From: an uncultured Candidatus Saccharibacteria bacterium
GTDB taxonomy: Bacteria > Patescibacteriota > Doudnabacteria > UBA920
Direction of reading: 5' to 3'
Length of the DNA: 64,000 nucleotides
NCBI GenBank assembly: GCA_964436545.1
Contig: CAYTCJ010000004.1
Location: 59,368 to 123,367, forward strand
The notes beneath the pieces were generated by a model, which worked only from the letters and a program-made list of their open reading frames with translations, did no database searches and was not told where the DNA came from. Shown one piece after another: positions 27,644-42,728 of the stretch. Numbering within the stretch: position 1 is the stretch's first letter; each line of letters starts with the position of its first letter. The position numbers were made by a program, and so were the translations under genes.

Positions 27644-28900
27644 ATGAGTAAAGAACAATACATCACCGGCTTAGATATAGGCACGTCGGCCATTCGGGCG
27701 GTGCAAGGGCGCATTAATCCGGAAGACGGAGTTTTAAATGTGATTGGCGTTTCGGAAAGTGAAAGTTTTGGAATTCGTAAAGGTGTCCTAGTGGACATTG
27801 AAGAAGCTGTTTCCGGGATTTCCAGTGTGCTGGAGAAAGTGGAGCGCATGACCGGTGTGCCCATTGCGAGCGCTTATGTTTCCGTTTCCGGCAGTCATAT
27901 TTCTACTTTGCAAAGTCACGGAGTAATTGCCGTGTCTCGGGCCGATGGGGAAATTAGCGAAGCCGATGTAGTGAGGTGTGTAGATGCCAGCCAAGCGATT
28001 TCGGTTCCGCAAAACCGAGAAATTTTACACGTGTTTCCGAAAAGCTTCACCCTAGACGGCCAAACAGGCATTCGGGATCCGCTCGGAATGAGCGGGGTGC
28101 GTTTGGAAGTGGATACTTTAATTGTGCAGGCAGGCTTGCCGTTTATTCGGAATTTAAGTCGCACTGTGGTGCAGGCCGGTTTGGAAATTAACGATTTAGT
28201 CTTAGCGCCTTTGGCTACTGCCGAATGCGTATTAACCAAACGACAAAAAGATTTAGGCGTAGCAGTGGTGGATTTGGGTGGTGGCACTACCAGTGTGGCG
28301 GTGTTTGAAGAAGGGGATTTGCTCCACGCTTCGGTGTTGCCCATTGGACAACAACATTTAACTAACGATTTAGCCATTGGCCTAAGAAGCAGTATTGAAA
28401 CAGCGGAAAAAGTTAAACTGCTCTATGGTCATACCGACCCTAAGGTGGTAAATAAATTAGAGGAAATTGATTTGTCCAAAATTGACGAGCAGGAAAAGGA
28501 AAGTGTGGAAAGGGGCTATGTGGCGGAAATTATGGAAGCTAGACTGGAAGAAATTTTGGCCATGGTGGCTAAGGAACTTAAAAATATTGGCCGAGATGGC
28601 AAACTGCCTTCCGGCATAGTGCTTACCGGCGGAGGCGCCAAACTGCCGGGCATTGTGGAATTGGCTAAAAAACATTTGCGTTTGCCGTGTATTTTAGGCA
28701 AACCGCAAAATATTACTACGGTGATAGATAAAATTGACGATCCCAGTTTTGCGACTGTGGTGGGGTTATTGCTGTGGGGACAAAAATTTGGACAAGCGAG
28801 CAGTTTTAGCTCAGGCACCATGTTGGCTTCGGTCAAAAGCGCTTTTTCCCGCCCGGGCGCGGAAAAGGTAAAAAAGTGGTTGAGATCATTTCTTCCTTAA
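27644..28900 (+). CDS. ftsA: Cell-division protein FtsA
   Basis: Actin-fold ATPase motifs (GLDIGTSAIRAV; VVDLGGGTTSVAVF; GIVLTGGGAKL). Confidence 0.9.
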   Translation: MSKEQYITGLDIGTSAIRAVQGRINPEDGVLNVIGVSESESFGIRKGVLVDIEEAVSGISSVLEKVERMTGVPIASAYVSVSGSHISTLQSHGVIAVSRADGEISEADVVRCVDASQAISVPQNREILHVFPKSFTLDGQTGIRDPLGMSGVRLEVDTLIVQAGLPFIRNLSRTVVQAGLEINDLVLAPLATAECVLTKRQKDLGVAVVDLGGGTTSVAVFEEGDLLHASVLPIGQQHLTNDLAIGLRSSIETAEKVKLLYGHTDPKVVNKLEEIDLSKIDEQEKESVERGYVAEIMEARLEEILAMVAKELKNIGRDGKLPSGIVLTGGGAKLPGIVELAKKHLRLPCILGKPQNITTVIDKIDDPSFATVVGLLLWGQKFGQASSFSSGTMLASVKSAFSRPGAEKVKKWLRSFLP

Positions 28901-29142
28901 TATAGACGAAACCCTAGATCTGTCCTTTGAAGTCCACGAGAGATGGACGAAGGAGGAAGCCTTGGCGAAGTAGGGCTCAAGTCCTTTCTGCCCTAGATGA
29001 AATCTTGCGTATGATTCGGTTTTTTAGTAATTTTTTTTGTAAGGTAAAGGATTATATGGATAGTTTTTAATATAATATCCGGCTTTAATAAGCCGGATAT
29101 TATATTTTTAAACTTATTTAAGATGAAAAATAAGCCAAAACC

Positions 29143-29171
29143 TTGACATAAAGTAAAAAATGTTATATAAT
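29143..29171 (+). promoter_or_regulatory. Consensus sigma-70 promoter (TTGACA-17-TATAAT) with no downstream ORF
   Basis: cTTGACAtaaagtaaaaaatgttaTATAATg. The next about 290 nt are non-coding with several hairpins before the repeat/GC-island region. Confidence 0.4.
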
Positions 29172-29466
29172 GCGAAGTTATATTATTATTCCTAACTTTC
29201 CAGTTTGGGAAGATCATATAACACAGCTCTTTAAATTATCCCTTAAGGAGGGATTAGACCCTAGTTAAATAGTGCCAATTTGGTTTGGAAATTTAACAGG
29301 GTAGAGTGTTACTTTTTAACCGCGGATTTGTGGCTGAGTTTAAAGTCAGTTGCAAATTAATTGCGGATGGTTTGGGTCTGCCAAGTGGCAGAAGTTGATG
29401 GCGAACGAATGCATAAAGGGCATTTGTCCCATGCGATAGAGATTTCATTTTATTTCACAGATGTTA

Positions 29467-29505
29467 GCGATGCGAATATACGAATGCATGCTAATGATAC
29501 GAATG
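29467..29505. repeat. 39-bp direct repeat, copy 1 of 4, bounding the GC-rich cassettes
   Basis: GCGATGCGAATATACGAATGCATGCTAATGATACGAATG. Other copies at 31079-31117, 31200-31238 and 34444-34480. Confidence 0.75.
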
Positions 29506-29635
29506 AATACGGATAGGGGAATCATAACTCCCCCTACCCCCTCTTTGGAAAAGAGGGGGGAAGAGAGGAATAAAAATGGAATAGCTATTGCATGGGGCAA
29601 ACAGACAAGCCCCCAATGCAGAAAGGAGCACAAAA

Positions 29636-30769
29636 ATGTGCTCATCAATCACGCGTCTTATCCTCGCCGTGGGTCTCGCGACCCTCGGCACAACCGTGTC
29701 CGCACAGTACGCCCCGACGCCCGACCCGGGCGAGCGAGCGCTCCGGCAGCAGCAGGCGCCACCCCCGCCGGCTCCGAAGCCCGAGGCTCCGAAGCCCGAG
29801 GCTCCGAAGCCCGAGGCTCCGAAGCCCGACCCGTTTTTTGATGGTAGCTGGGGAGGATGGAGGGCTTGGCTCGGAGGGATCGCCCTCCTGATCGCCGCCG
29901 GCATCGGGGTGGTGGTTTGGCGTCGCCGGCGGAACAACCGCCCCGCACACGACGATCATGGCAACGACCCCCAGCCCCCCGCGAACCCGAACCCGAACCC
30001 GAACGCGCCGCCGCCCCCCACGCCTGTCAACCACATGATAGCGTTGATGCTCGTCGGTGGTGCGCTCGCACTCGCAACCCTCGGTGCCCCGTCCGTGTCC
30101 GCCGCCCCTATGGAGGGGTGTGTGGTGACGGCTGTCAACGGGATGGTCGGCGACGCTGAAATGCCAGTGTTGGTGTCCGGCGCGGACAATTTCGTTTCGT
30201 GCCACGCCCCCGGCGTGTCGGAAGTGAAGCTCACGGATGGGAAGGGGCAGGTTGTTCCCGTCAAGAAGCTGGTAAAGACCAGCGATGGGTTCAATTTCTC
30301 GTACACGCCCCCGGCCGGAACCGCTGCGGAGTTGCATGTGCAAGCTGGTAGTCGCAAGGTTGCCTCGCTTTACACTAACAGCGCCTTCGGCGCCTGGACT
30401 GCCTACACGGCGGTTCAGAGCGTCCGGCCGGAGATCCGCGCCGCGGCCACGGACGCCAGCGCCGCGCTCACCGCCGCCAAGTCCGCGGCCGAGGCGGTGA
30501 CGAAGCTCACCGGCGTGGTGGCCGACCACGGCACCCGCATCACCGCGCTGGAGTCTCGGCCCGCCCCGACGGTCGACCTCTCGGCCTACGACCGCCGGCT
30601 TCGCGAGCTCGACGGCGAGCTCGCGAAGGTTAAGGCCGCACAGGTCGCCACCGACGCCCAGGTAGCCAAAAACGCCGAGGGGCTGGAAGCCCTCGGCAAT
30701 CGCCGAGTCGGCAAGGGCGGAATTTTCGGCAGGTCGGGCAGGCTCGCCGACCTGCCCGAGGCCAAGTAG
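29636..30769 (+). CDS. GC-rich (about 68%) secreted/anchored Pro-rich repeat protein with a coiled-coil C-terminus (possibly two fused cistrons)
   Basis: RBS AAAGGAG then ATG; signal peptide MCSSITRLILAVGLATLGTTVSA; (PKPEA)x4 encoded by a 15-bp tandem DNA repeat at 29762-29821; TM helix plus RRRR; second signal-like segment at 30037. Codon usage is foreign to the host. Confidence 0.55.
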   Translation: MCSSITRLILAVGLATLGTTVSAQYAPTPDPGERALRQQQAPPPPAPKPEAPKPEAPKPEAPKPDPFFDGSWGGWRAWLGGIALLIAAGIGVVVWRRRRNNRPAHDDHGNDPQPPANPNPNPNAPPPPTPVNHMIALMLVGGALALATLGAPSVSAAPMEGCVVTAVNGMVGDAEMPVLVSGADNFVSCHAPGVSEVKLTDGKGQVVPVKKLVKTSDGFNFSYTPPAGTAAELHVQAGSRKVASLYTNSAFGAWTAYTAVQSVRPEIRAAATDASAALTAAKSAAEAVTKLTGVVADHGTRITALESRPAPTVDLSAYDRRLRELDGELAKVKAAQVATDAQVAKNAEGLEALGNRRVGKGGIFGRSGRLADLPEAK

Positions 30770-31078
30770 CCGGCGGCCAAGAAGGCGCCGGCGAAAAAAG
30801 AAAAAGAAGAAGAAAAGGAGGAAGAAGGAGAGGTCTAACCTTTCCCCCTACGCATAGCCAGTGCAGGCTATGAGTAGGGTAACAACCAAGCATGGGGGAT
30901 TTGTGCACTCAAATCCCTCCAGTTCTTTCTTTCTGTTTTGGGTAGTTTTTACCCCCTCCCTTAACCCTCCCCACAAGGGGGAGGGAAAAAGCAGGGTGAA
31001 TACCACCCCCTCCGATTAACATTGGAGAACATCTCCTATTTTAGGAGGAGAAGAGAAAGAGGGAAATGGAGAAAAATC

Positions 31079-31117
31079 GCGATGCAAATATACGAATACA
31101 TGCTAATGATGCGAATT
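31079..31117. repeat. 39-bp direct repeat copy 2
   Basis: GCGATGCAAATATACGAATACATGCTAATGATGCGAATT. Confidence 0.7.
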
Positions 31118-31199
31118 TACGGATTCTACAGATATCTACAGATGAAGACAAAAGACACAAATATTGGTCCACAGATCACACGGATACACAGATATTAGT

Positions 31200-31238
31200 G
31201 CGATGCGAATATACGAATGCACGCGAATGATGCGAATG
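31200..31238. repeat. 39-bp direct repeat copy 3
   Basis: GCGATGCGAATATACGAATGCACGCGAATGATGCGAATG. Confidence 0.7.
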
Positions 31239-31353
31239 TATATAAATAGTTAATAATAGTTGTAAGTTGTAAGTTGGTAAGTAAAACAGAAATCAGCAAA
31301 GCAGTAAGCACATTAAAAAATCCCGCCAGTAGGGCGGGTGAGAATAAGAAAAA

Positions 31354-31611
31354 TTAAAAAGGAATAGGTATACCGGTTTTAGCTGATACTTGTTTTGCCC
31401 AATCTTCTAGTCTTTCTATTCGGTGGCGATTGACTATCATTTCCTGTTCAAAGCCTTTTACGGTTTTACAAAGATAATCCAGAGTGGAGGTTATGGAGTC
31501 AACTTTTTGTTCTAATTTGTTAAAGCGAGTGTCAATATCCGCCTTCATTTCATCTAAATATTCAAATAAGGGCTGAAAGTTTGTGGTTGTCGTGGGAGTT
31601 TTTTTAGGCAT
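31354..31611 (-). CDS. Small hypothetical coiled-coil protein (85 aa)
   Basis: AT-rich ORF inside the island. No motif. Confidence 0.35.
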   Translation of the reverse strand: MPKKTPTTTTNFQPLFEYLDEMKADIDTRFNKLEQKVDSITSTLDYLCKTVKGFEQEMIVNRHRIERLEDWAKQVSAKTGIPIPF

Positions 31612-31864
31612 AAGGATAGAAAAAATTATGTTTATTATATTATATCAAGTTATTGAATTTTTGGAAATATACAGCTAAAATATAATGCGGTTTTTTGGTG
31701 GGTAGCTTTTTTTACCCCCTCCTTCCGATGTGTATCGGAAGACTCCCCCTATGTTAGGGGGAGAGGGGAGAAGAGAGGTACCCGGCAAGAAAACGCGGTA
31801 CAAGTGTCCCTTGCCGGGATGCGAAAAATTTTGAGGAGGAAAAATATCAATTGCAAGATGATAG

Positions 31865-31913
31865 TTTACGGATGTTACAGATACCTACAGATGGGGACAA
31901 AAAGGCACGGATG
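31865..31913. repeat. 45-49-bp ACRGAT-phased repeat unit (copy U1)
   Basis: TTTACGGATGTTACAGATACCTACAGATGGGGACAAAAAGGCACGGATGG. Related units at 33048-33096, 34303-34351 and 34361-34407. Confidence 0.65.
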
Positions 31914-32027
31914 GAAAATCATAACCCCCTCCTAACCTCCCCTTCCGCCAGAGGCGGACAGGTATCTTAAGGGGAGGAAGAAGAGAGAAAAACCGGATGA
32001 GCAAGAAAGGACATTTTTTGTCATTCC

Positions 32028-32111
32028 GAATCCTGATATTCATCAGGACAAGTTTAATTTGGAATCCAGAAAATGGATTCCCGTTTTCACGGGAATGACA
32101 GCAAATAAGCA
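32028..32111. repeat. Family-A palindromic element immediately upstream of the 32234 cassette gene
   Basis: TGTCATTCCGAATCCTGATATTCATCAGGACAAG ... GGATTCCCGTTTTCACGGGAATGACAG. Confidence 0.55.
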
Positions 32112-32233
32112 ATTTTATTATTGCTATAAGCTGATCACTGGGCACTTACCACTGATCACTAATTTGTGTTTTTTCTTGCTCGTCCGGTGCCTTTGGGCAA
32201 ACCAATCCGGACAGGCGAGAAAGGAGAATTCGC

Positions 32234-32968
32234 ATGAGTTTACTCATTGTGATTGGTCTCCTGATTTTCGCCCCATGGTGCGCCCAGGGGCAAACTCGGC
32301 TGCTGGTCCCGCGGGCGGACTCGGCTACCGCCATGGTGCGGTGCGGGGCCAATCTGGAAAGCGTAAAGGCGGAGAATCAATTGACCCGTCAGTACGTTTT
32401 TACAGGGGAGGAGACTCTGACGGGGATGCAATACTGTGTTGAGAGTCGCCACGCTCTCGTGGATGACCGCAACCGGTACCGTGTTCCGGCAGGGACCATT
32501 GGCTGGTTGTCTTCGGACGGCCAGTCGGTGGTTCTGGAGCAGTGCGTCAATATGGCGCACTGCGAGGGTTGTCCTCCCGCCCCACCTCCTCCGCCCCCGC
32601 CCCCGCCGGCGCCGAAGCCGGAACCCAAGCCGGAACCGCCCCCACCGGCACCCGAGCCCCCGGCGCCAAAGCCGGAACCCACCCCCGAGCCGGTGGTTGT
32701 CCGGCCCGAGCCACCCCCGCGGGTGGTTTTGCCCAAGCCCGAGCCACTGGCGCCGGCGCCGAGGCCCGCTCCCGTGGTCAAGAGGGGCGGGCACGGGAAG
32801 CTTATCGGGGGGTTGGTTGGGGCGGGGGTCGCGGGGGCAGTGGCGTATTTCGCCACTCGCGACCGCCACGACGCGTCCGCCCCGCCGGCCCCGGGCGTAA
32901 AGCCGGGGGTGCCGGTAGTTTCCCCGGCCTCACGGCCGGGGGGAGCCGGATTCGCCATCCGGTTCTGA
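32234..32968 (+). CDS. GC-rich (about 70%) secreted Pro-rich surface protein with a C-terminal TM anchor
   Basis: RBS AAAGGAGAATTCGC then ATG; signal peptide MSLLIVIGLLIFAPWCAQG; Cys-containing domain; PPAPPPPPPPPPAPKPEPKPEP linker; LIGGLVGAGVAGAVAYFA TM. Confidence 0.55.
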   Translation: MSLLIVIGLLIFAPWCAQGQTRLLVPRADSATAMVRCGANLESVKAENQLTRQYVFTGEETLTGMQYCVESRHALVDDRNRYRVPAGTIGWLSSDGQSVVLEQCVNMAHCEGCPPAPPPPPPPPPAPKPEPKPEPPPPAPEPPAPKPEPTPEPVVVRPEPPPRVVLPKPEPLAPAPRPAPVVKRGGHGKLIGGLVGAGVAGAVAYFATRDRHDASAPPAPGVKPGVPVVSPASRPGGAGFAIRF

Positions 32969-33047
32969 CATCTTGCCCCAAGCGGTAATGGGCGAATTTT
33001 ACCGCAAAGACAGGAACTTCGTGTGTCCTGTCTTTTTTCGTTTACAG

Positions 33048-33096
33048 TTTACGGATGCTACAGATAACTACAGATGGGGACAAAATATACGGATGC
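33048..33096. repeat. ACRGAT-phased repeat unit (copy U2)
   Basis: TTTACGGATGCTACAGATAACTACAGATGGGGACAAAATATACGGATGC. Confidence 0.65.
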
Positions 33097-33270
33097 AGAG
33101 TTTTATACGACGTATAGGACTCCGCCAGCTGGCGGATAAGTAGTATAAGACCTATACAAATATAGTAAGGAATTTTAACTTATTCTAAAGATTGACAAAA
33201 ATAGCAAAATGTGTTAAAATTGAATGTCCCAAAATTTTGGGGATTTTTGTGAGGTGGTATTTTTAGAACT

Positions 33271-33300
33271 GGATTCCGGCTCAAGGCCGGAATGACAAAA
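33271..33300. repeat. Family-A palindrome upstream of the protease cassette
   Basis: GGATTCCGGCTCAAGGCCGGAATGACAAAA. Confidence 0.55.
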
Positions 33301-33367
33301 ATCGGGATCACAGTCAAGGATAAGCCTTAGAAATATCACTTTCCAAAAATTCCATAGGAGGTGGGCG

Positions 33368-34144
33368 ATGGCCCAAGAAAATCCTCGTCGCTGGAGCGAC
33401 GAGGATCTGCTGCTTTTAATAGTGGCTCTCTTGTGCCTGTCAGCAGGTTTGTTGCTGATAGGAGATGAGAGTGGGGAAACGGTTCCCCACGGGCCAGTTG
33501 CCCCGCCCCAGCAACAATACCAAACCCCCCGCCCGAGGGAAGAGTATCGGGCGCCCCGCCGGTGGGAAGAACCGGCACCTCGACAGGAGGCACCTGCCCC
33601 GGCCCCTCAGCGAACCACACCCGCCCCTGGGGTGTGGGAGGACATTCGGTCGAGGAATGTCCTTGTCCGGCAAGGGGCTGGACAGGGAAGCGGGGTCCTC
33701 ATTGGCCACGGGCTGGTCCTGACGGACTTTCACGTGGTTGATGGGGGATGGGGGGCGGTGATTGACGGTCACGGGACCGCAATCGTGCAAGCTTGGGACG
33801 AGGGTAATGACCTCGCAATCCTTAAGCTTGTGGGATATGACCCCACACCCCGTCTGGACTTCGCGTTTGACCCGGACTTGCTCCGTCCGGGCACACGTCT
33901 GGTTACCGTGGGTAACCCTAGAGGGGTCACGGTGTCTCAGACTGGGTGGGTGGAAGCCGGGTCAGGTCAAGGCTTCTGGGCCAGGATGGACACCTGGTCC
34001 GGGCCCGGGGCGAGTGGGAGCTTAGTATACTCGCTGGATGGTGCCCCGGTGGGCATTGTCCAGCAGTGGGACGGAACCGGCATTCGGGTGAAGTGCCGAG
34101 ATCTCCGTCCCATTGTCCGACTCCTCAACTATATTGGGCGCTAA
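33368..34144 (+). CDS. GC-rich trypsin-like (S1 family) serine protease with N-terminal membrane anchor and Pro-rich linker
   Basis: RBS TAGGAGGTG. Catalytic triad contexts: VLTDFHVV (His), NDLAILKL (Asp) and GPGASGSLVY (Ser). Confidence 0.68.
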   Translation: MAQENPRRWSDEDLLLLIVALLCLSAGLLLIGDESGETVPHGPVAPPQQQYQTPRPREEYRAPRRWEEPAPRQEAPAPAPQRTTPAPGVWEDIRSRNVLVRQGAGQGSGVLIGHGLVLTDFHVVDGGWGAVIDGHGTAIVQAWDEGNDLAILKLVGYDPTPRLDFAFDPDLLRPGTRLVTVGNPRGVTVSQTGWVEAGSGQGFWARMDTWSGPGASGSLVYSLDGAPVGIVQQWDGTGIRVKCRDLRPIVRLLNYIGR

Positions 34145-34302
34145 TTGCGCCTACCTTTCCAGAGGCAGGGTTCAAGTCCTCTGGCGCGTGCTTAGACAAC
34201 ACGCGAAAGGTTTTTTACGAACAAGGCGGGTTAAACCGACCTTAAGTAGAAAAATCACTTAATTGTCTCCGCTCAGAGCTTTGTGCTTCTGGGCGGTTTT
34301 TT

Positions 34303-34407
34303 TGTTTACAGATGCTACGGATGTCTACAGATGGGGACAAAAAGACACGGATAAATACAGCTTACAGATGCTACGGATGTCTACAGATGGGGACAAAAGA
34401 CACGGAT
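34303..34407. repeat. Two tandem ACRGAT-phased units (U3, U4; 58-bp period)
   Basis: TTACAGATGCTACGGATGTCTACAGATGGGGACAAAA(A)GACACGGAT twice. Confidence 0.7.
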
Positions 34408-34443
34408 ATTGGTTCACAGATCATGGATTTACACAGATGTTAT

Positions 34444-34480
34444 GCGATGCGAATATACGAATGCATACGAATGATACTAA
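34444..34480. repeat. 39-bp direct repeat copy 4
   Basis: GCGATGCGAATATACGAATGCATACGAATGATACTAAT. Confidence 0.65.
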
Positions 34481-34602
34481 TAAAAACAGATTGCAGATAA
34501 TTTATATGACATATTAGACCTATAAGTCGCATTATCTTTATCATTTGACACAGAAAAAAAACAGTGTCATAGTAATTAAAAATAAGCGAATGAAATAAAA
34601 AT

Positions 34603-34932
34603 ATGCCAACTCATAACATAAATATCGCAGAACAAAAATTAAGAGACTTTGCCTTAAAGCTGTTAGAAGAAAAACAGTTAGACATTGGTGATGAAGAATT
34701 AAAAGCCCAATTAGCCGAAGATTTATACGAGCGTTTGGAGGAACGGGTGAATGCGGAAATTTTAGCCGGGTTGCCCCCGGAAAAACTGGAAGAGTTTGAT
34801 AAACTGTTAACCAGTGGAAGCAATGAGCAATTAAGCGAGTTTTGTTTAAAAAATATTCCCCATTTACAAGAACTCTTAAATACCACTTTAACCCAATTTA
34901 GAGTAAGGTATTTAGGTTTGGAACAAAAATAA
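34603..34932 (+). CDS. Small acidic hypothetical protein (109 aa)
   Basis: ORF directly upstream of the giant gene. Helical and E/L-rich. Confidence 0.45.
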   Translation: MPTHNINIAEQKLRDFALKLLEEKQLDIGDEELKAQLAEDLYERLEERVNAEILAGLPPEKLEEFDKLLTSGSNEQLSEFCLKNIPHLQELLNTTLTQFRVRYLGLEQK

Positions 34933-34952
34933 GTATAGTCAAATAAATTATA

Positions 34953-34980
34953 GATTCCGCATCAAGTGCGGAATGACAAA
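34953..34980. repeat. Family-A palindrome overlapping the start of the giant ORF
   Basis: GATTCCGCATCAAGTGCGGAATGACAAA. Confidence 0.55.
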
Positions 34981-34983
34981 CCC

Positions 34984-37900
34984 ATGAGTGAATACGGTCG
35001 CTTTTTGTCACCAGAAGCTCGGCACGAAGCGGAAAAACCAAAATTTGTTTTTACAGATATTAGCGACATTCAAGAAGGAATGGCGCAAGATGCTTCGTTG
35101 GCGCAATTTAACGAAAAACCTGAAGCGCTGGAAGAGAATAATGTTTCTTGGTGGAAGAAACCTTTTAAAAAGGCTTTTTGGAAAAATGTAGGGAAGCGAG
35201 GAACCAGTTTAGGCCGAAGTATTTGGAAACAAAATTTAGCTCGGGATTATTACGAAGTTTCGGGAAAAAAACAAGCCGAGGCCAAAATGCAGGCAAGTGG
35301 CAGTTTGTTTGCAGTGGAAAAAAAGTTTGACCCCAATGAGCCGGGCATAAGCGAAGCCGAAAAACAAAACCGACTTAAAGCGCAAAAAACCGCGCATGAT
35401 GAATATGTAAGTGCCATTACCCGAAGGTTTGCGGGAGCTACGGGTGAACTGGCAGGTGATTTTGTCCATAAAGAACACGGCGGTGAAGCGGTGGAAACTT
35501 TAGGCAGGACTGAGGCGGAAGTCCAGATTAAGCGAAAATTAGAAGAAACGGTTAGGGCTTTTGCCGGCGGGGAGATTAGCGAAGAACAGGTTCTGGAAAA
35601 AGAAAAGGCCATTTGGGCAGAAATTAAAGGGGTTAAACCGGAAGTGGTTAAAAAGGGGAAAATGTATGCGAGTAATTTGTTAGAAATGGCCAAATGGGCA
35701 AAGGAAGAAGTAGAAAAACAAGTGAGACAGAATATTGACCACAACTTGGCTGTGAGAAATTTACAGTTAGATTTTGATGTGGTAGTAGGTAGGGCAAAAA
35801 GTGGCGCAAAAACCGAGGCGCAATTTAATGCTGTGGAAAACGCGGTAGATAAAATTATGGCTAAAACCCGAGGTTTGCCTAGCATTATTTTTAACGAAGC
35901 CACAATTACTGCTGCGGTTACCGCTGCCTATTTTGTAGAAAAGAGTTTATTTACCAAGGGGCTTTATAGTGTTGCTGGTTTAGTAGGATTTGGAGTGGGG
36001 GCAGGTGCGACAGCGGCTTTTAAAGAAGGTAAGACTTTAGAAAAAGAAAGAATGCAACATGCCCGGGAAATGGCGCAAGGTAGAAAGTTTGAGGAAAGTA
36101 GTGCAACTCGGCGGAAGGAGTTGGAAAAATTCCGTTTAAAGTTTCAGACAGCCGAAGAATTGGAACAGAATTTAGACGCCAAGTTGTTTAATTTTTTGGA
36201 AAGTGGAACAGATTTACGAACACTAAGTCCGGAAGGGTATAAACAAGCTTTAGAAGCCGTGGCCGAAATTGACGCGCGCATTTTGGAAGGCGAGAGGGGA
36301 GTAGTGGTAAAGAAAAGAAAATGGTTAAAGTTTTGGAAAAAAGAGTATAAAGAAGAAAGACATAGTGCCGACTTAATTGGTTATTCCGATCCTACGCAAA
36401 TTGCCAAAGAAGAAGGTCAGTTAGATATGGCTCGGGCTGCCGCCAAAATCGCCTTAAAAAAGTGGTGTTTGGCCAATGGTAAAACCGAAGCTCAGTTTAA
36501 AGCAGATTTGCAAGCGAGTGTAGAAGCCAAGATTCATGGGTTTTATGCAGGTGAGGAAGGGATAGACAAACAGAACGAAAGATTTAAGGAATTTAAAAAG
36601 AAAAAAATGTGGCAGGCGGGGAAAAAGGCTGCGGTATGGGGGACAATTTTTGGCACGGCTATTCAAGAAGCCAGTGCCTTTAAGCAGGACCACACTTACG
36701 GACTTGCAGAACATGCTTGGGATGCCTTTAGGGGGAACGAGCATCATTTGGCTCCAGAGGAAACCGCTACAGCCCTAGAGAATGCTTTTGCCTATGGGCA
36801 AAAAAATATCAACGAAGGTTTGGATTATTTATTTCCTACAGCGCACGCAGCCGGTCCGAATATAGAAGTACAGATTGGTGGGAGTAAATACAGTCTGCCC
36901 GATGGTTTTAGATTAGAAGACAATCCGGCTACGGCTAATCCGAACGATAAAGTTTTAATTGATAGCAAAGGTGTTTCGCATACGTTAGAGTTTAAAGCCG
37001 ACGGCACGCCCACGGCTGATAGCAAAAAGTGGTTGTTAGATAATGGTTATAAACTTGATGAAATAATTTCGCCCGCCGGTCCCAAAGGGATTCATAGTTT
37101 GGATGTAGACGCTACCAAAAAACAATTTCCTGACCTCGCGCATCATACGCGTATAGACTGGCACGATGAACCGGGTAAGTTTAAAAGCGCAATTCATAAT
37201 ATGTGGCTGGAGTTTGAAGGTAAACAGCAAATGGGTTATTTGGTAACTCGAGGAGACAAAGTATATTTAGACTGCAGTAAAGTGATTCAAAATTTTGTGA
37301 AAGAGGTATCTGAAAGAATTAACGATCCGAGTTTTGGCCAAGTGGAAGGGTATACTAATGCAGACGGCAGTCCGTTTGTGGACAGTAAAATGATGCACTT
37401 AAAGGACCAAATTCAGCAGGCCATTAATAATGGCGACATTAATAGATATTTTCAAGCTGTGGTGATTCCCACCGAAGGGGCGAATAGCGCAGGTTTGAGC
37501 GATTTAGTGCAAGGTGCAGACAGTAGTGGTTTAATTGAGCTGAACGGCAAGTATGATTGGTCTAAAATGTTTATTGATCCGGCTACGGGCCATGTAGACC
37601 CTAAAATGCTACACGATGGGCATTTGCCGTTTCGGTTTTTGGAAATGCGGTTTGATGGCCACGTAATGAACACGGCCCAAGGAGCCGGAGAAGCCGGACC
37701 TATGCCTTTCTTTAAACTAACGCCACCGCTAGATGAATTGCCACCGACTACTTTCCCGCCCCTAACTTATGTGGGGAGAAGAAAAGGTTTGGAGGAAACT
37801 AACTGGACACCACCCCCTCAGCGTCCAAAACGAGAACCTTTGCCAGAAATACCATATTATGGATATTATAATAGTCCAGAACGAAGTGAATATTATCGTC

Positions 37901-40311
37901 AGAGAATATCTCCAACGTTAAGAGAAAATCCAGATGCTATTTTAGATTTTAATAGAGAGATGGATTGGTACATTTCTAATCTTGAAAATCAAAACCCAGA
38001 ATACGCAGATGAATTAAGAGAGTTAATGCAACAGCCTGATATGTTAATTCCAATGTCTAATGAATGTAAGGCTGTTGCTTGCATTCCAGTTTATGCTTTA
38101 GGTGAGGGAAAAGGTATAGAACACACTCTTGAACAGTATAGGAAACAAATTATAAATGGTTCGGTAAAATCTGATGAATTTGAGTTATTGTTATTCTTGA
38201 ACCATCCACAAGATAGACTTAAAGGTATGACTATTTTATCTGGGGCAGAAGAAAGAGTTAGAAATGGGAATCCGGAAGCGTATGACACAGCTGAGGTGAT
38301 TAGGCAGTATAAACTCAAGCATCCTGAATTAAAAATTAGAGTACTAGAAAAAGAATACGAAACCAGACCAAAGTGGGGAGTAATAATTAAATCAGTTTAT
38401 GATGTTGCTTGTTTAAGGGCTAAGTCGCGTTCCAATCCAGTAAGTAAGGATATAGTTTTACTTACAAATGATGCGGATGTGAGAGATATGTCCGATACGT
38501 ATTTAAGATTAGTCATTGATGAGTTTGATAAAAGTGATGGTAGTAAACAGATTGATGGGTTAGCTACTAGAATGGATGATGACCCCAATGTTTATAGAAA
38601 ATGGCCAAATTTCTTTTTGGCAAATCGTTTTCGTCAATTTCTTGAAGCTCAAACCAGAGCAGGCATAAGTGGTTCTGGGGAAATAAATTCATTACCTTAT
38701 AATTTCTCATCCCGTGGTTCAAAAGAAAAGTATATTAATACTTGGGGCGCCAGTACGGCTTTGAGAGGTAGTACGTATTGTGGGATAGGCGGGGCAGATT
38801 TGAGTGTAGATGCAGGGGCCGATTCTGAGTTAGGGAGAGTAATTACCAATTCCAGAAGAGGTGGTAAGAGAAAATTAGATAATGCAAATTTTCCCATAAA
38901 GTTTTTGAATTCCGCATGGCTTGAGACAGACCCTAGAAGGCCGTTGGGGATTTATAAGAAAGGTAAGCCATTAGTAGCTACTTGGAGCGAATGGGATGAA
39001 ATGAATGTTTATGGAGAGACTCTTGCAGATCAGAATGAAGGCGATTCAGAAGCTTTAGATCCGGTAAGACTTTCCAAAGAAATAAACGTCATGATGAAGT
39101 CATGGTGGGGTTTGGATGCTGATTCAATGGTTGTTAAAAAAGCATTAGGCTGGTTAGGATTAAAAGAAGGTGATTATGATATCGTGGATATTGGATATAC
39201 AGATAGGGTAGGTGTTCAAAAAACTTACAGAGGAATCAAAATTAATAATATTTCGAATTTAAAGACTGGAGTAGATGCTTGGAAAACCAAGCGGGAAAGA
39301 CTTGATGAGGCGAAAGCAAATCGTTTGAAAAAAGCTCAAGCGGTGAAAAGTATTGGACAAGCATCAACCCCTTCAAACCCAGATAATGGCAAAATATGGG
39401 ATGAAGAAACTTTTAGATTTATTGAACCTCAGCCGGAAGCGCCAATTAATCAAACCACAGAAGATGATGATTTGTGGGATGATGAAGGTAATAGGCCTGT
39501 GCCCAAAAATTTAAAATCGGGTAAGCTTCCTTCTGTGGCTAGTGAGCCTAGCAGACTGCCAGAAAGCGGTGGAAATACTAAACCGGTTGAGTCAGGGCCT
39601 GGCAGGGGAGCAAACGAGCCAGTACAATCAGCTCAAAGAGAAGCTCCGGCACCCAAAGCTGAACAAGGTAATGTGAGAGAAAGAGAATCTAGGGAAACCA
39701 AAATGATTGAGCTATTAAATGCTTTTGATGCCAATCCTTATGAATTTATTTATGACAAAGGATTAGCAAGAGTTAGCGAAGCCGGGTTTAGCACCAATAG
39801 GTTTTTAAAAGAATTAAGACTTCAACATGGTATCAGTAATGCCGATTTGGCAACCATAAAACAAAGAACTAGAGTTATGAGTCCCAAAGGTCCAATAATG
39901 GGGAAAGGCAGAGAAGTGGCGCAATATGCAAGGATGATTTTAGCCACTAAACCCGAGATGCGTGCACAATGGATAGGATTGGATGACGGAAGGTATAATA
40001 AATTTTCTAAGGAGTTGATTGTTGCGGAAGTAAAAAAAGATATTAGCCAAAAAACTTTTAATCCAGATAAGATTGTAGAGTTAGAAAGGGAATTCGCACA
40101 AGGGCCGATTTTTGTGCTGGACAGTGTTTTGTCGGCTAATCCGGCTGTGTTAAGAAAAGCTAATGAGGCTTTTAAACAGGCAATAAACAATGGCGAAGCG
40201 CAAGATAATTCAGATGATAAAGCTAGAGTTTTTAAAACTACCTTAGACGCATACCAACAAGGTTCATTAAAGCTTACCAAGCAACGAGGCAGAAAAAGCC
40301 AGAAAAAATAG
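34984..40311 (+). CDS. Giant (1776-aa) membrane-anchored protein of unknown function; possible GT-A-like central domain
   Basis: Continuous ORF. K/E-rich coiled-coil N-terminal third; two TM helices around aa 300-350 (TAAVTAAYFV ... GLVGFGVGAGATAAF). Central segment with IPVYALGEG ... LLTNDADV, reminiscent of nucleotide-sugar transferase IPVYN/DxD motifs (weak). Alternative GTG start at 34966. Confidence 0.7.
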   Translation: MSEYGRFLSPEARHEAEKPKFVFTDISDIQEGMAQDASLAQFNEKPEALEENNVSWWKKPFKKAFWKNVGKRGTSLGRSIWKQNLARDYYEVSGKKQAEAKMQASGSLFAVEKKFDPNEPGISEAEKQNRLKAQKTAHDEYVSAITRRFAGATGELAGDFVHKEHGGEAVETLGRTEAEVQIKRKLEETVRAFAGGEISEEQVLEKEKAIWAEIKGVKPEVVKKGKMYASNLLEMAKWAKEEVEKQVRQNIDHNLAVRNLQLDFDVVVGRAKSGAKTEAQFNAVENAVDKIMAKTRGLPSIIFNEATITAAVTAAYFVEKSLFTKGLYSVAGLVGFGVGAGATAAFKEGKTLEKERMQHAREMAQGRKFEESSATRRKELEKFRLKFQTAEELEQNLDAKLFNFLESGTDLRTLSPEGYKQALEAVAEIDARILEGERGVVVKKRKWLKFWKKEYKEERHSADLIGYSDPTQIAKEEGQLDMARAAAKIALKKWCLANGKTEAQFKADLQASVEAKIHGFYAGEEGIDKQNERFKEFKKKKMWQAGKKAAVWGTIFGTAIQEASAFKQDHTYGLAEHAWDAFRGNEHHLAPEETATALENAFAYGQKNINEGLDYLFPTAHAAGPNIEVQIGGSKYSLPDGFRLEDNPATANPNDKVLIDSKGVSHTLEFKADGTPTADSKKWLLDNGYKLDEIISPAGPKGIHSLDVDATKKQFPDLAHHTRIDWHDEPGKFKSAIHNMWLEFEGKQQMGYLVTRGDKVYLDCSKVIQNFVKEVSERINDPSFGQVEGYTNADGSPFVDSKMMHLKDQIQQAINNGDINRYFQAVVIPTEGANSAGLSDLVQGADSSGLIELNGKYDWSKMFIDPATGHVDPKMLHDGHLPFRFLEMRFDGHVMNTAQGAGEAGPMPFFKLTPPLDELPPTTFPPLTYVGRRKGLEETNWTPPPQRPKREPLPEIPYYGYYNSPERSEYYRQRISPTLRENPDAILDFNREMDWYISNLENQNPEYADELRELMQQPDMLIPMSNECKAVACIPVYALGEGKGIEHTLEQYRKQIINGSVKSDEFELLLFLNHPQDRLKGMTILSGAEERVRNGNPEAYDTAEVIRQYKLKHPELKIRVLEKEYETRPKWGVIIKSVYDVACLRAKSRSNPVSKDIVLLTNDADVRDMSDTYLRLVIDEFDKSDGSKQIDGLATRMDDDPNVYRKWPNFFLANRFRQFLEAQTRAGISGSGEINSLPYNFSSRGSKEKYINTWGASTALRGSTYCGIGGADLSVDAGADSELGRVITNSRRGGKRKLDNANFPIKFLNSAWLETDPRRPLGIYKKGKPLVATWSEWDEMNVYGETLADQNEGDSEALDPVRLSKEINVMMKSWWGLDADSMVVKKALGWLGLKEGDYDIVDIGYTDRVGVQKTYRGIKINNISNLKTGVDAWKTKRERLDEAKANRLKKAQAVKSIGQASTPSNPDNGKIWDEETFRFIEPQPEAPINQTTEDDDLWDDEGNRPVPKNLKSGKLPSVASEPSRLPESGGNTKPVESGPGRGANEPVQSAQREAPAPKAEQGNVRERESRETKMIELLNAFDANPYEFIYDKGLARVSEAGFSTNRFLKELRLQHGISNADLATIKQRTRVMSPKGPIMGKGREVAQYARMILATKPEMRAQWIGLDDGRYNKFSKELIVAEVKKDISQKTFNPDKIVELEREFAQGPIFVLDSVLSANPAVLRKANEAFKQAINNGEAQDNSDDKARVFKTTLDAYQQGSLKLTKQRGRKSQKK

Positions 40312-40340
40312 GAAATAAGGGAATTAATATGTTCGGTTCC

Positions 40341-40367
40341 AAACCCCCCGATATTCTCGGGGGGTTT
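40341..40367 (+). terminator. Intrinsic terminator after the giant ORF
   Basis: AAACCCCCCGATATTCTCGGGGGGTTT plus a T-run. Confidence 0.55.
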
Positions 40368-40418
40368 GGGTTTAAATTTGGCATTTTTTACTTTTGTGCT
40401 ATACTGATTTTATATAAA

Positions 40419-40586
40419 GGGTCTGTTTCCAAATGTCATTTTGTCTGCAACTGTAAAATTTTGGCTACTTGTCACAAAAAATTTTTCCGCTTATCCTACG
40501 GATAAGCATCAAAATTTATTTGTGCCAATTTGCTCTAATTTAATAGTTTCGTCTTAAAAGCACATTCGGAAACAGACCCAAAACAA
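40419..40586. repeat. About 168-bp element bounded by 18-bp inverted repeats upstream of ftsZ
   Basis: GGGTCTGTTTCCAAATGT ... ACATTCGGAAACAGACCC. Internal CTTATCC-TAC-GGATAAG hairpin. Confidence 0.4.
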
Positions 40587-40685
40587 ATATCAAAATAAAA
40601 AATCAATCGTTTGTATTTTAAGGTTAACCTTTCAACACGTTTGATTTTTTGTTTGATTTAATTTATTCTGAAATTATCAACTAAA

Positions 40686-41912
40686 ATGAAATCACAAAAT
40701 CGTATGGGAGAAGTTAAACCAAAAGTTCAAAGTTTTGCCAGAATTAAAGTTTTAGGCGTGGGCGGGAGTGGCACCAGCGCTGTTAACCGTATGAGCGAAC
40801 TCGGCATTAAAGGCGTAGAATTTATTGCCATTAATACCGATGCGCAGGCTCTGCATAATAATAATGCAGATGTAAAAGTGCATATTGGGAAAAATATTAC
40901 CAAAGGTCTAGGCAGTGGCATGAATCCGGATTTAGGTCGGCAAGCGGCGGAAGAAAGCATTGAGGAGCTGGAGGAAGTGGTAGACAATGCCGATATGGTG
41001 TTTATCACTTGCGGGCTAGGGGGCGGAACCGGCACCGGAGCTTCGCCCATTGTCGCGGAGCTCGCTAAGAATAAAGGCGTCTTAACCGTTGCAGTCGTGA
41101 CCCGTCCGTTTACTTTTGAAGGCAGTAAAAGAAAAGAAGTGGCCGATGCTGGCTATGATAATTTAAAAGATAAAGTCGATGCCATTATTGCCATCCATAA
41201 CGATAGGATCCTGCAAATTATAGACAAGAAAACTTCACTCATAGATTCGTTTAAAACCGTAGACGAAGTTTTAAGGCAAGGCATTTCCGGTATTTCGGAT
41301 TTAATTACCACACATGGTTTGGTGAATGCTGACTTTGCCGACGTGCGTGCCATTATGCAAGACGCGGGCACAGCCATGATGGGGATTGGGCGAGCGAGTG
41401 GCGAGAACCGTGCGAGCGAAGCTGCGAAGCTCGCGGTAAATTCTCCGCTGTTAGATATGTCCTTAGACGGCGCAAAAGGAGTACTCTTTAATATTACCGG
41501 CGGAAAAGATTTGGGTATGTTTGAAATTGACGAAGCCGCGAAAGTGATTACCAAAAATATTGACTCCGATGCCAAAGTTAAGTTTGGCGCGGTGATAGAT
41601 GAAAACTTAACCGATGAAATTAAGATCACGGTCATTGCCACGGGCTTTGATGGCAACAATCGTTTAAGTGGTATGTCGCCCATAAGTTTTGATGAACCCA
41701 AAAAAGGTTTTTTGGGCACAGGCAATTTTAGCGCTCAACCCCAGAGCCCTCCGCAAACTGCGGTGGAATTAAGACGACCACTTTTTAACCCTAAACCAAT
41801 TGAACCTAAACAACCCCCAGTCATTCAAACTACTCAACCGACAGAAAATTTAAATGCAGATAACGAAGACGAATTGGAAATCCCGGCGTTCATTAGAAAG
41901 AAAATGAAGTGA
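40686..41912 (+). CDS. ftsZ: Cell-division GTPase FtsZ
   Basis: Tubulin signature GGGTGTG (GLGGGTGTGASPIVAE), T7 loop, and a variable C-terminal linker with conserved tail. Confidence 0.95.
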   Translation: MKSQNRMGEVKPKVQSFARIKVLGVGGSGTSAVNRMSELGIKGVEFIAINTDAQALHNNNADVKVHIGKNITKGLGSGMNPDLGRQAAEESIEELEEVVDNADMVFITCGLGGGTGTGASPIVAELAKNKGVLTVAVVTRPFTFEGSKRKEVADAGYDNLKDKVDAIIAIHNDRILQIIDKKTSLIDSFKTVDEVLRQGISGISDLITTHGLVNADFADVRAIMQDAGTAMMGIGRASGENRASEAAKLAVNSPLLDMSLDGAKGVLFNITGGKDLGMFEIDEAAKVITKNIDSDAKVKFGAVIDENLTDEIKITVIATGFDGNNRLSGMSPISFDEPKKGFLGTGNFSAQPQSPPQTAVELRRPLFNPKPIEPKQPPVIQTTQPTENLNADNEDELEIPAFIRKKMK

Positions 41913-41980
41913 GGCGGAGAAAGTTGTAAGTTGGTAAGTGAGTAAGTTGTAAGTAGTAGAGTTCTAAGTAAACAAAGAAT

Positions 41981-42337
41981 ATGATAATTAAGTCATTTAC
42001 AGAAATTATTGCTTGGCAAAAATCTCACCAATTAGTTTTAGATGTTTATATTTTAACATCAGAGTATCCAAAACACGAGATGTTTGGTTTAGTCAGTCAG
42101 AGTCGTAGGTGTGCGGTATCTATTCCTTCTAATATTGCGGAAGGTTTTAAGAGAAAATCGCTTAACGATTCATTGCATTTTTATAATATCGCGGAAGCGT
42201 CATTAGAAGAGCTAAAGTATCAACTTTTACTCGCTAAAGATTTAAAATACGTTTCAGAATTTAAATATCAAAAAGTTTTTGAACTATGTGAGGAGGTTGG
42301 AAAGTTAATTTATGGTTGGATAAAAATTCAAAAATAA
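41981..42337 (+). CDS. Four-helix-bundle protein (TIGR02436 / '23S rRNA IVS protein' family)
   Basis: IPSNIAEGFKRKS hallmark motif. The gene is bracketed by inverted GTAAGTTG-word arrays (41915-41960 and 42340-42375). Confidence 0.7.
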   Translation: MIIKSFTEIIAWQKSHQLVLDVYILTSEYPKHEMFGLVSQSRRCAVSIPSNIAEGFKRKSLNDSLHFYNIAEASLEELKYQLLLAKDLKYVSEFKYQKVFELCEEVGKLIYGWIKIQK

Positions 42338-42728
42338 CTTACAACTTATTTACTTACAACTTACTACATTACAAATCCGCTCTTGCGGATTTTTAAAATA
42401 TGTGCTATAATATATAAAAGTGATATAAAAAGGTCGAGCGTTGATTTCGCAAACATAACGAAACAGCGAATATCCTTAGGCTAAATAACCCTTTAAATAA
42501 CAATTTGTTTAAGGGGTGAAGGAAACACAAATAAAATTAAAATTTAGATTTTAACAACAAAATTTTGTTAAAATCATAGGTGAGTAAATTGGCTTTTTTG
42601 AATTCAAAAGCGAATTTTACCCCATACCCCAAAAACTTTATTTTTTTTTGGAAGTTTGGGACCTATGTCAATCAAATACTCAGCATTAAAACTTAAGAGT
42701 TTTGGTGAGTGGGTAAACTTATAAATTT

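Follow-up and report, generated by a model that had tools for sequence, protein, structure and literature searches.

We analysed a 64,000-nucleotide stretch of contig CAYTCJ010000004.1 (positions 59,368 to 123,367 of the forward strand; assembly GCA_964436545.1), hereafter the window, from an uncultured Candidatus Saccharibacteria bacterium assigned to the Doudnabacteria in GTDB; the organism is a reduced-genome relative within the Patescibacteria, in line with the reduced-genome symbiont that an earlier note on this DNA had in mind. Between ftsA (27644-28900) and ftsZ (40686-41912) lies a pair of genes, a short one that encodes a DUF5663 protein and, directly downstream, one open reading frame (ORF) for a giant protein, which the earlier note had described as membrane-anchored with a possible glycosyltransferase-like core. 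We find a conserved amino-terminal module of ~950 amino acids (aa), here called the N-module, followed by a predicted glycosyltransferase (GT) region and variable C-terminal parts. With moderate confidence, we read the giant protein as a predicted membrane-associated, cytoplasm-facing glycosyltransferase of envelope biogenesis. The features of its gene, in window coordinates, are as follows.

34984..40311, + strand: giant ORF, 1775 aa plus stop.
34984..35868, + strand: N-module part 1, compact alpha/beta and helical, aa 1-295 (predicted local distance difference test score, pLDDT, mostly >=90, about 90-96).
35872..36024, + strand: candidate membrane anchor, a hydrophobic hairpin rich in Gly/Ala, aa 297-347; N304-E305 are near-invariant.
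36055..36081, + strand: QHAREMAQG motif, aa 358-366, directly after the hydrophobic hairpin.
36619..36681, + strand: third conserved hydrophobic helix, aa 546-566 (G557, Q561-E562).
36706..37713, + strand: N-module part 3, mixed alpha/beta, aa 575-910, defined by model and conservation.
37714..37863, + strand: Pro-rich linker with near-invariant R933-x-x-L936-E937, the point at which stand-alone GT modules start.
37876..39354, + strand: glycosyltransferase region, aa 965-1457, predicted from AlphaFold2 pLDDT, Foldseek and Pfam matches of homologues.
38470..38478, + strand: DxD motif D1163-A-D1165 after beta-4, conserved in the GT domains of the family.
39361..39654, + strand: disordered P/S/E/G-rich linker, aa 1460-1557 (pLDDT 30-47), poorly conserved and of variable length.
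39655..40257, + strand: C-terminal all-helical domain, aa 1558-1758, from the AlphaFold2 model; present in close relatives only.

The giant ORF is a real, intact gene that is full-length relative to its homologues. Translation yields 1775 aa if begun at the ATG (34984) and 1781 aa if begun at the first in-frame GTG (34966); we assign the start to the ATG because homologues begin with MSEY or MPEY at this point and an identical 1775-aa protein is on record at NCBI (the 1776 residues counted previously are 1775 codons plus the stop). From Met1 to the C terminus, the ORF is collinear with homologues of 1616-1689 aa at 50-61% identity, which excludes a pseudogene or a chance ORF. The GC content of the gene is 0.38-0.43, compared with 0.405 for the rest of the window and 0.48-0.58 for an island upstream. 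Both motifs quoted previously are present (CIPVYALGEG at aa 1033-1042 and LLTNDADV at aa 1159-1166), and the N terminus has no hydrophobic stretch, in agreement with the reported absence of a signal peptide. The C-terminal 400 aa, by contrast, are not set apart by their charge as had been stated: they hold 23-34 K, R, D and E residues per 100, against 20-38 elsewhere in the protein.

The glycosyltransferase assignment draws on a structural model, a structure search and aligned homologues. The AlphaFold2 model of aa 925-1775 (851 residues, built on 15 sequences) has a mean pLDDT of 77.6, and aa 965-1457 lie mostly at 80-96. In this region, a helical lead-in precedes a GT-A core (~aa 1030-1325) and then a helix/beta-hairpin subdomain; the modelled beta-alpha-beta order is typical of GT-A, and the NDAD sequence follows strand 4. 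When the model was compared with the PDB using Foldseek, the top matches were all GT-A nucleotide-sugar enzymes (E values of 8e-5 to 1e-3, Foldseek probability 1.00), led by hyaluronan synthase 7sp7 (E 8.2e-5), chitin synthase 7stm, RmlT 8bz5 and mannosyl-3-phosphoglycerate (MPG) synthase 2zu7.

Homologues carry the same signal. A first set of ten, aligned with the giant protein, shares CIPV..EG, FE..LF.NHP, SNDAD, GAN.A.R.S.Y.A.GG, (E/A)D..LG and RR across aa 1020-1340. Two proteins match Pfam glycosyltransferase models in stretches aligned to these residues: P0010 matches PF13641 (32.9 bits, cut-off 27; aa 839-1051 of P0010) and P0008 matches PF00535 (23.6 bits, cut-off 23.3). Residue conservation was counted over 105 GT domains that the family profile recovered. 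D1140 and G1270 occur in all 105, R1291 in 104, D1163 in 101, and D1165 and D1280 in 100 each, with a glutamate before D1280 in 77. D1140, D1163, D1165 and D1280 are the acidic positions that an active GT2 enzyme should have. On the model, the core domain is a GT-A fold of a divergent, GT2-like type, and we infer that it catalyses glycosyl transfer. The GT-A/DxD core proposed in the earlier note is thus backed by the AlphaFold2 model, the Foldseek search and the aligned homologues. Its suggested likeness to glycosylating toxins is not: the structural neighbours are GT2-type synthases and transferases together with MPG synthase, and there is no toxin among the 50 listed matches.

Several results weigh against this assignment. 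The template modelling (TM) scores of the Foldseek matches are low (0.2-0.35) and their root mean square deviations high, which is due in part to the query, a multidomain model of 851 residues. The protein has no sequence match to glycosyltransferase families in Pfam, NCBIfam or the PDB, even at E <= 1, and a family profile of the GT region matches no PDB chain. With its own sequence silent in these three databases, the assignment rests on structure prediction and aligned homologues. A profile of the whole family returned nothing relevant from the PDB, and matches of the whole protein to GvpG, KinB_sensor and YfkN were at chance level in the Pfam, NCBIfam and PDB searches.

The N-module is the most conserved part of the giant protein family. 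An AlphaFold model of aa 1-960, built on 40 sequences (mean pLDDT 78.5), shows an alpha/beta part (aa 1-295), helical bundles (aa 350-570) and a mixed alpha/beta part (aa 575-910). The coiled-coil N terminus proposed earlier is replaced in this model by a compact alpha/beta domain and helical bundles with pLDDT >90, and there is no single long coiled coil. Invariant residues in part 1 include W81, F149, G167 and N231; in the QHAREMAQG motif, H359, R361, A364 and G366 are invariant in 40 sequences; and R723, W726, D728, G849, E887, T897 and G900 are conserved in part 3. Foldseek returned no significant match for the N-module (best E 0.68 against the PDB and 0.055 against BFVD, a set of viral structures), and in none of the 40 members scanned is it covered by a Pfam or NCBIfam model. 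As modelled, the N-module is family-specific, conserved and without a known fold.

We searched the aa 1-960 profile exhaustively against 1.84 billion representative proteins (50% identity clusters) and recovered 1277 clusters at E <= 1e-3, 852 of them at E <= 1e-30; most of the full-length members listed are 1000-2050 aa long. Word-index searches with alignments did not extend the family, although they recovered stand-alone GT modules. A scan of GTDB species genomes with one peptide pattern from the QHAREMAQG region yielded 22 loci in Saccharibacteria, Doudnabacteria, Parcubacteria, Moraniibacteria, Nomurabacteria and unclassified Patescibacteria metagenome-assembled genomes (MAGs). The sole labels from outside the Patescibacteria among the genome matches belong to two MAGs called Gammaproteobacteria, probably through a binning error. 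By these profile and pattern matches, the family is large and restricted to Patescibacteria. A phage or defence origin was considered and rejected: there were no relatives on viral contigs and no PHROGs or PADLOC matches.

The protein of the window belongs to this family by homology of its N-module, including the QHxRE and QE motifs, and by the DUF5663 gene immediately upstream, the product of which matches PF18908 (E 2.4e-10, 41.3 bits, cut-off 23.7). In 26 of 27 distinct related loci, the giant gene is likewise preceded, directly and on the same strand, by a DUF5663 homologue, and the remaining locus has no upstream DNA; judged from gene order, the pairing is obligate. Full-text literature searches found no paper on the pairing of the N-module with DUF5663 and none that mentions DUF5663 or PF18908. 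The DUF5663-associated giant family is undescribed, in that Pfam and NCBIfam do not cover the N-module with its DUF5663 pairing.

The two genes of the window are accompanied by the following signals.

34269-34296: terminator-like hairpin that closes the upstream unit.
34545..34573, + strand: sigma-70-like promoter match, TTGACA-17-CATAGT with TG, ~30 nt before the DUF5663 start; a consensus match only.
34603..34932, + strand: DUF5663 gene (PF18908), 109 aa, acidic and helical, with no hydrophobic segment.
34954..34974, + strand: intergenic hairpin with a 9-bp stem, 10 nt before the ATG, holding the GTG at 34966.
40338..40370, + strand: strong terminator-like hairpin of 14 pairs (9 GC), 27 nt past the stop.

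This arrangement, with a spacer of 51 nt between the DUF5663 gene and the giant ORF, suggests a putative two-gene operon. The core of the intergenic hairpin is TTCCGCA-TCAAG-TGCGGAA at 34955-34973 (minimum free energy z-score -3.25). The start codon had been placed within a palindrome of a repeated family; we find the ATG outside the hairpin, 10 nt downstream, with only the alternative GTG inside, and the exact hairpin occurs once within the window. In relatives, the DUF5663 and giant genes mostly abut or overlap and the hairpin is not conserved, so that the spacer that bears it appears lineage-specific; the hairpin could modulate translation of the giant gene. No Rfam match was found in window positions 28000-42500 and no tRNA in 28000-35000.

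Published data on Southlakia epibionticum may bear on both partners. In Table S2 of Wang et al. 2023 (PMC10633639), the structural annotation likens a DUF5663 protein of this organism to trigger-factor C-terminal and LTXXQ chaperone folds, which, by analogy, fits an adaptor or chaperone role. In the same organism, SEML1_0161 encodes a 767-aa hypothetical protein that was scored as growth-defective/essential by transposon sequencing (Tn-seq) and is followed by two DUF5663 genes, SEML1_0162-0163 (PMC10633639, Tables S1/S2). The three genes lie between IF-2 and fmt/def (PMC10633639), the same neighbourhood as that of a family member in locus L003. SEML1_0161 is possibly a shortened N-module homologue, an unverified lead; the main text of the Tn-seq paper (PMC10633639) does not discuss the giant protein. 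Five Saccharibacteria loci (L019, L021, L022, L023 and L027) have one or two extra, divergent DUF5663-like ORFs downstream of the giant gene (~8200-9100), besides the one upstream.

Membrane association of the giant protein is plausible. The first two hydrophobic segments (aa 297-319 and 321-348) have Kyte-Doolittle values of 1.3-1.4 and pLDDT of 31-55, and the simple-sum Hessa dG of the segments of this hairpin is +3.9 to +5.3 kcal/mol. The third hydrophobic helix closes a helix of 41 residues, comes after a flank strongly enriched in K/R and contains an invariant Q-E pair. Across the family there are only three hydrophobic peaks (aa 301-319, 328-346 and 542-560; family-mean Kyte-Doolittle 1.2-1.4). 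Of the two transmembrane helices placed by the earlier note at aa 300-350, the hydrophobic segments exist, but hydropathy, Hessa sums and pLDDT make them only marginal transmembrane candidates, and the third conserved segment (aa 546-566) had been overlooked.

The C-terminal half probably faces the cytoplasm. The GT2, GT9 and C-terminal Ser/Thr kinase domains found in the family sit on the same side, with no hydrophobic segment between them. YkuD-type domains are normally extracytoplasmic, and in the two members that carry one (with its SxGC motif) the domain is immediately preceded by an additional hydrophobic segment, the N-flank of which is rich in K/R. The absence of a signal peptide, the nucleotide-dependent domains on one side and the extra segment before YkuD together favour a cytoplasmic C-terminal half. 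The setting of the operon between ftsA and ftsZ, chromosomal and of housekeeping type, and the lack of viral-contig, PHROGs and PADLOC matches also speak for our overall reading. Four points count against this topology and the envelope role that we attach to it. The three conserved segments are poor transmembrane candidates, with simple Hessa sums that are all positive and have medians of +3.6 to +5.9 kcal/mol across the family; the flanks of segment 3, strongly positive on the N side and acidic on the C side, would suit an N-in/C-out anchor through which the entire C-terminal half is exported; the extra segments of the YkuD members are no better as transmembrane helices (Hessa ~+6); and adjacency to ftsA and ftsZ is confined to close relatives.

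We propose the following mechanism. The two-gene operon would express a giant multidomain enzyme together with the small DUF5663 protein. The hydrophobic hairpin (aa 297-347) and the helix at aa 546-566 would probably tether the protein to the membrane on its cytoplasmic side, and the Pro-rich linker would join the N-module to the GT2-type, GT-A-fold domain with its DxD motif. This domain may use a nucleotide-sugar as the sugar donor, with D1163 and D1165 binding a divalent metal and D1280 serving as the catalytic base of the transfer. The N-module, possibly with DUF5663, would select or position the acceptor. The kind of acceptor would most likely be an envelope precursor close to the membrane, whether lipid carrier, wall glycopolymer or envelope protein.

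The C-terminal parts of the family are exchanged among relatives. The enzymatic part comprises two GT2 subtypes, GT9 and added domains: P0006 and P0017 have a GT9 (GT-B) domain in place of GT2, and the GT9 strand-1 motif stands at the GT position in at least nine of the members listed. At the position of the helical domain, other members have a kinase, YkuD, DUF362 or nothing. Among 29 members, a sample deliberately biased to long proteins, a Ser/Thr kinase domain follows the GT domain at the C-terminal end of 7, YkuD occurs in 2, and DUF362 and a calpain-like peptidase occur in 1 each. Kinship of the N-module does not predict GT2 subtype: P0004 is ~66% identical in the N-module and 33% in the GT region, and in one Doudnabacteria protein the N-module is 33% identical while the GT domain is closely related (468 bits).

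Stand-alone GT modules also exist. P0013, P0014 and P0015 share 49-51% identity with aa 961-1440, and their start coincides with the motif of the Pro-rich linker. The P0014 gene (L029, 8001-9620) has a GC content of 0.52 in a non-Patescibacteria contig of 0.67 GC, where it lies beside a recombinase, McrBC and a PemK toxin, and looks like a horizontal transfer; P0015 has a HicA-like N terminus.

A bolder reading, which we hold to be possible but on balance unlikely, is that the N-module and DUF5663 form a Patescibacteria-wide, possibly essential, membrane-associated 'carrier' of new fold that presents interchangeable enzymatic heads (two GT2 subtypes, GT9, a Ser/Thr kinase, an L,D-transpeptidase, a calpain-like protease or DUF362) to one target. 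If it were true, the family would represent a lineage-specific apparatus of envelope biogenesis or of the host interface without a counterpart in other bacteria. SEML1_0161 of S. epibionticum, with its two neighbouring DUF5663 genes, may be a link to such a carrier.

We regard as improbable the alternative that the giant protein is a structural or organizing component of the division or envelope machinery, such as a membrane-tethered scaffold between FtsA and FtsZ, with a GT-like domain that senses nucleotide-sugars or is catalytically irrelevant. The position of the gene between ftsA and ftsZ speaks for such a scaffold, as do the neighbourhoods of the close relatives L001, L005 and L014, with ftsZ downstream, and of L006, with ftsA upstream. 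So do the best-conserved part of the protein, a ~950-aa module that is not enzymatic, and the replacement of the enzymatic domain by an unrelated GT-B fold (GT9). Yet linkage to division genes is absent at most loci, and the acidic residues of DxD and ED are 95-100% conserved over 105 diverged domains, which argues for catalysis; moreover, exchange for another glycosyltransferase family suggests that glycosyl transfer is the selected function.

Marginally less probable still is a surface-exposed or host-delivered effector. Under this alternative, the third hydrophobic helix would be an internal signal-anchor, and the C-terminal half, with its interchangeable heads (glycosyltransferase, kinase and protease), would be displayed on or injected into the host bacterium, where it would modify host targets with the nucleotide-sugars of the host. 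The Patescibacteria in culture live as episymbionts (PMC10633639), and segment 3 is preceded by 6.4 K/R residues and followed by a net-acidic flank, like an N-in/C-out anchor; it is, however, the least insertion-competent of the three segments in the window protein (+9.8 kcal/mol). The C-terminal enzymes vary among relatives (two GT2 subtypes, GT9, Pkinase, YkuD, calpain-like and DUF362), discordantly with N-module relatedness, and one stand-alone GT module seems to have been transferred to a high-GC bacterium, beside a recombinase, McrBC and PemK. Against this, the GT core and its catalytic residues are retained in most members and not freely swapped, the family spans many Patescibacteria classes, and toxin GT-A families are not among the top 50 structural matches. 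The protein has no signal peptide or secretion-system marker domain, and no export- or translocation-type Pfam domain was found in 40 family members. No conserved immunity-like gene follows; the genes downstream of the giant gene vary between loci and are unrelated genes of housekeeping type. The host-interaction role put forward in the earlier note is accordingly not supported, in a family that is widespread in Patescibacteria classes among housekeeping genes, and in which relatives have their ATP- or nucleotide-sugar-dependent domains (kinase and GT9) on the side of the GT domain. A pseudogene, an assembly chimera or a spurious long ORF is effectively refuted: although the compositionally foreign island immediately upstream makes local assembly problems conceivable, the frame is unbroken, homologues from separate assemblies are collinear with it over its whole length, the gene has the native GC content, the DUF5663 operon partner is conserved and the domains are modelled confidently.

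That island, at window positions 29000-34500 between ftsA and the DUF5663 gene, is presumably the 'cassette array' of the earlier note. Its GC content is 0.48-0.58 in a genome of 0.40. Between its high-GC ORFs an AT-rich unit of ~50-190 nt recurs (29466, 31078-31257, 31860, 33043 and 34300-34501), and the last copy lies just upstream of the giant-gene operon. The ORFs at 29588-30769 and 32234-32968 contain Pro/Ala/Gly-rich repeats of 12-15 nt, and the ORF at 33368-34144 encodes a Trypsin_2 peptidase. Directly after ftsZ, at 41981-42337, lies a gene for a 23S rRNA-intervening-sequence protein or bAvd-like four-helix bundle, and in the syntenic locus L001 a reverse transcriptase (RVT_1) gene is found two genes past ftsZ; together these hint at a context of the diversity-generating-retroelement type in relatives. 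Elsewhere, the window encodes a LytR-CpsA-Psr family ligase (21996-23501, - strand), in keeping with wall-glycopolymer attachment in an organism that probably makes wall-linked glycopolymers, and a ComEC competence channel (52189-53661, + strand), which is consistent with natural competence.

Much of bacterial diversity falls within the Patescibacteria, and no role has been assigned to most of the conserved proteins that are specific to this lineage. One family here brings together more than 1000 clusters at 50% identity, a fixed small partner, a confidently folded module without matches and a catalytic handle in the DxD motif. This combination makes the family experimentally tractable in genetically accessible Saccharibacteria through point mutants, localization and glycan or glycolipid profiling. 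Such work could expose a lineage-specific step in envelope construction or in the interface with the host bacterium.

Two of the known systems with which we compared the giant protein are toxins. Like the glycosylating toxins (TcdA/TcdB of GT44 and Legionella Lgt/SetA), it combines a GT-A fold and a DxD motif within a very large multidomain protein; unlike them, it has no translocation, receptor-binding or autoprotease domain and no export signal, it belongs to a family of conserved chromosomal genes across Patescibacteria, and none of these toxins is among the 50 listed Foldseek matches. The family shares with polymorphic toxin systems (Zhang et al. 2012, PMC3482391) a conserved N-terminal part, recombining C-terminal enzymes and stand-alone copies of the C-terminal part. 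It differs from them in having neither a secretion-linked N-terminal domain nor an adjacent immunity gene, in keeping a glycosyltransferase in most members, and in having its conserved neighbour, DUF5663, upstream rather than downstream.

Polyprenyl-phosphate GT2 enzymes of the GtrB, DPMS and ArnC type are ~300-400 aa long and have a cytoplasm-facing GT-A domain that is tethered by a few hydrophobic helices, which directly follow it. The giant protein would be like them in a cytoplasm-facing GT-A domain tethered by few helices, and its QHxREMAQG motif, conserved, charged and juxtamembrane, could bind a lipid phosphate. However, its hydrophobic hairpin lies ~700 residues upstream of the GT domain, and no sequence or structural match to these enzymes stands at the top of the list.

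The closest known relatives are the inverting GT2 enzymes of GT-A fold (PF13641, Glyco_tranf_2_3, and PF00535, Glycos_transf_2), for which the nearest structures are the hyaluronan synthase of a Chlorella virus (7sp7), chitin synthases (7stm and 8k3t) and Listeria monocytogenes RmlT (8bz5). The giant protein differs from them in that its own sequence falls below all Pfam and NCBIfam GT models, in a ~30-residue insertion past strand 2 and a long low-confidence insertion at aa 1229-1246, in the lack of the multi-helix membrane channel of processive synthases, and in the fusion of the GT domain behind a ~950-aa module paired with DUF5663. Shared with them are a predicted Rossmann-like GT-A core, CIPV...E at the start of strand 1, DxD after strand 4 and a G-x-N/S-x-A-x-R...GG segment, and (E/A)D1280 would correspond by position to the 'ED' catalytic-base motif of GT2. 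What is known here is thus the GT-A glycosyltransferase, and what is new is its embedding in an undescribed, lineage-wide family of giant proteins: no surprise of principle, but a well-defined and widespread unknown of Patescibacteria cell biology.

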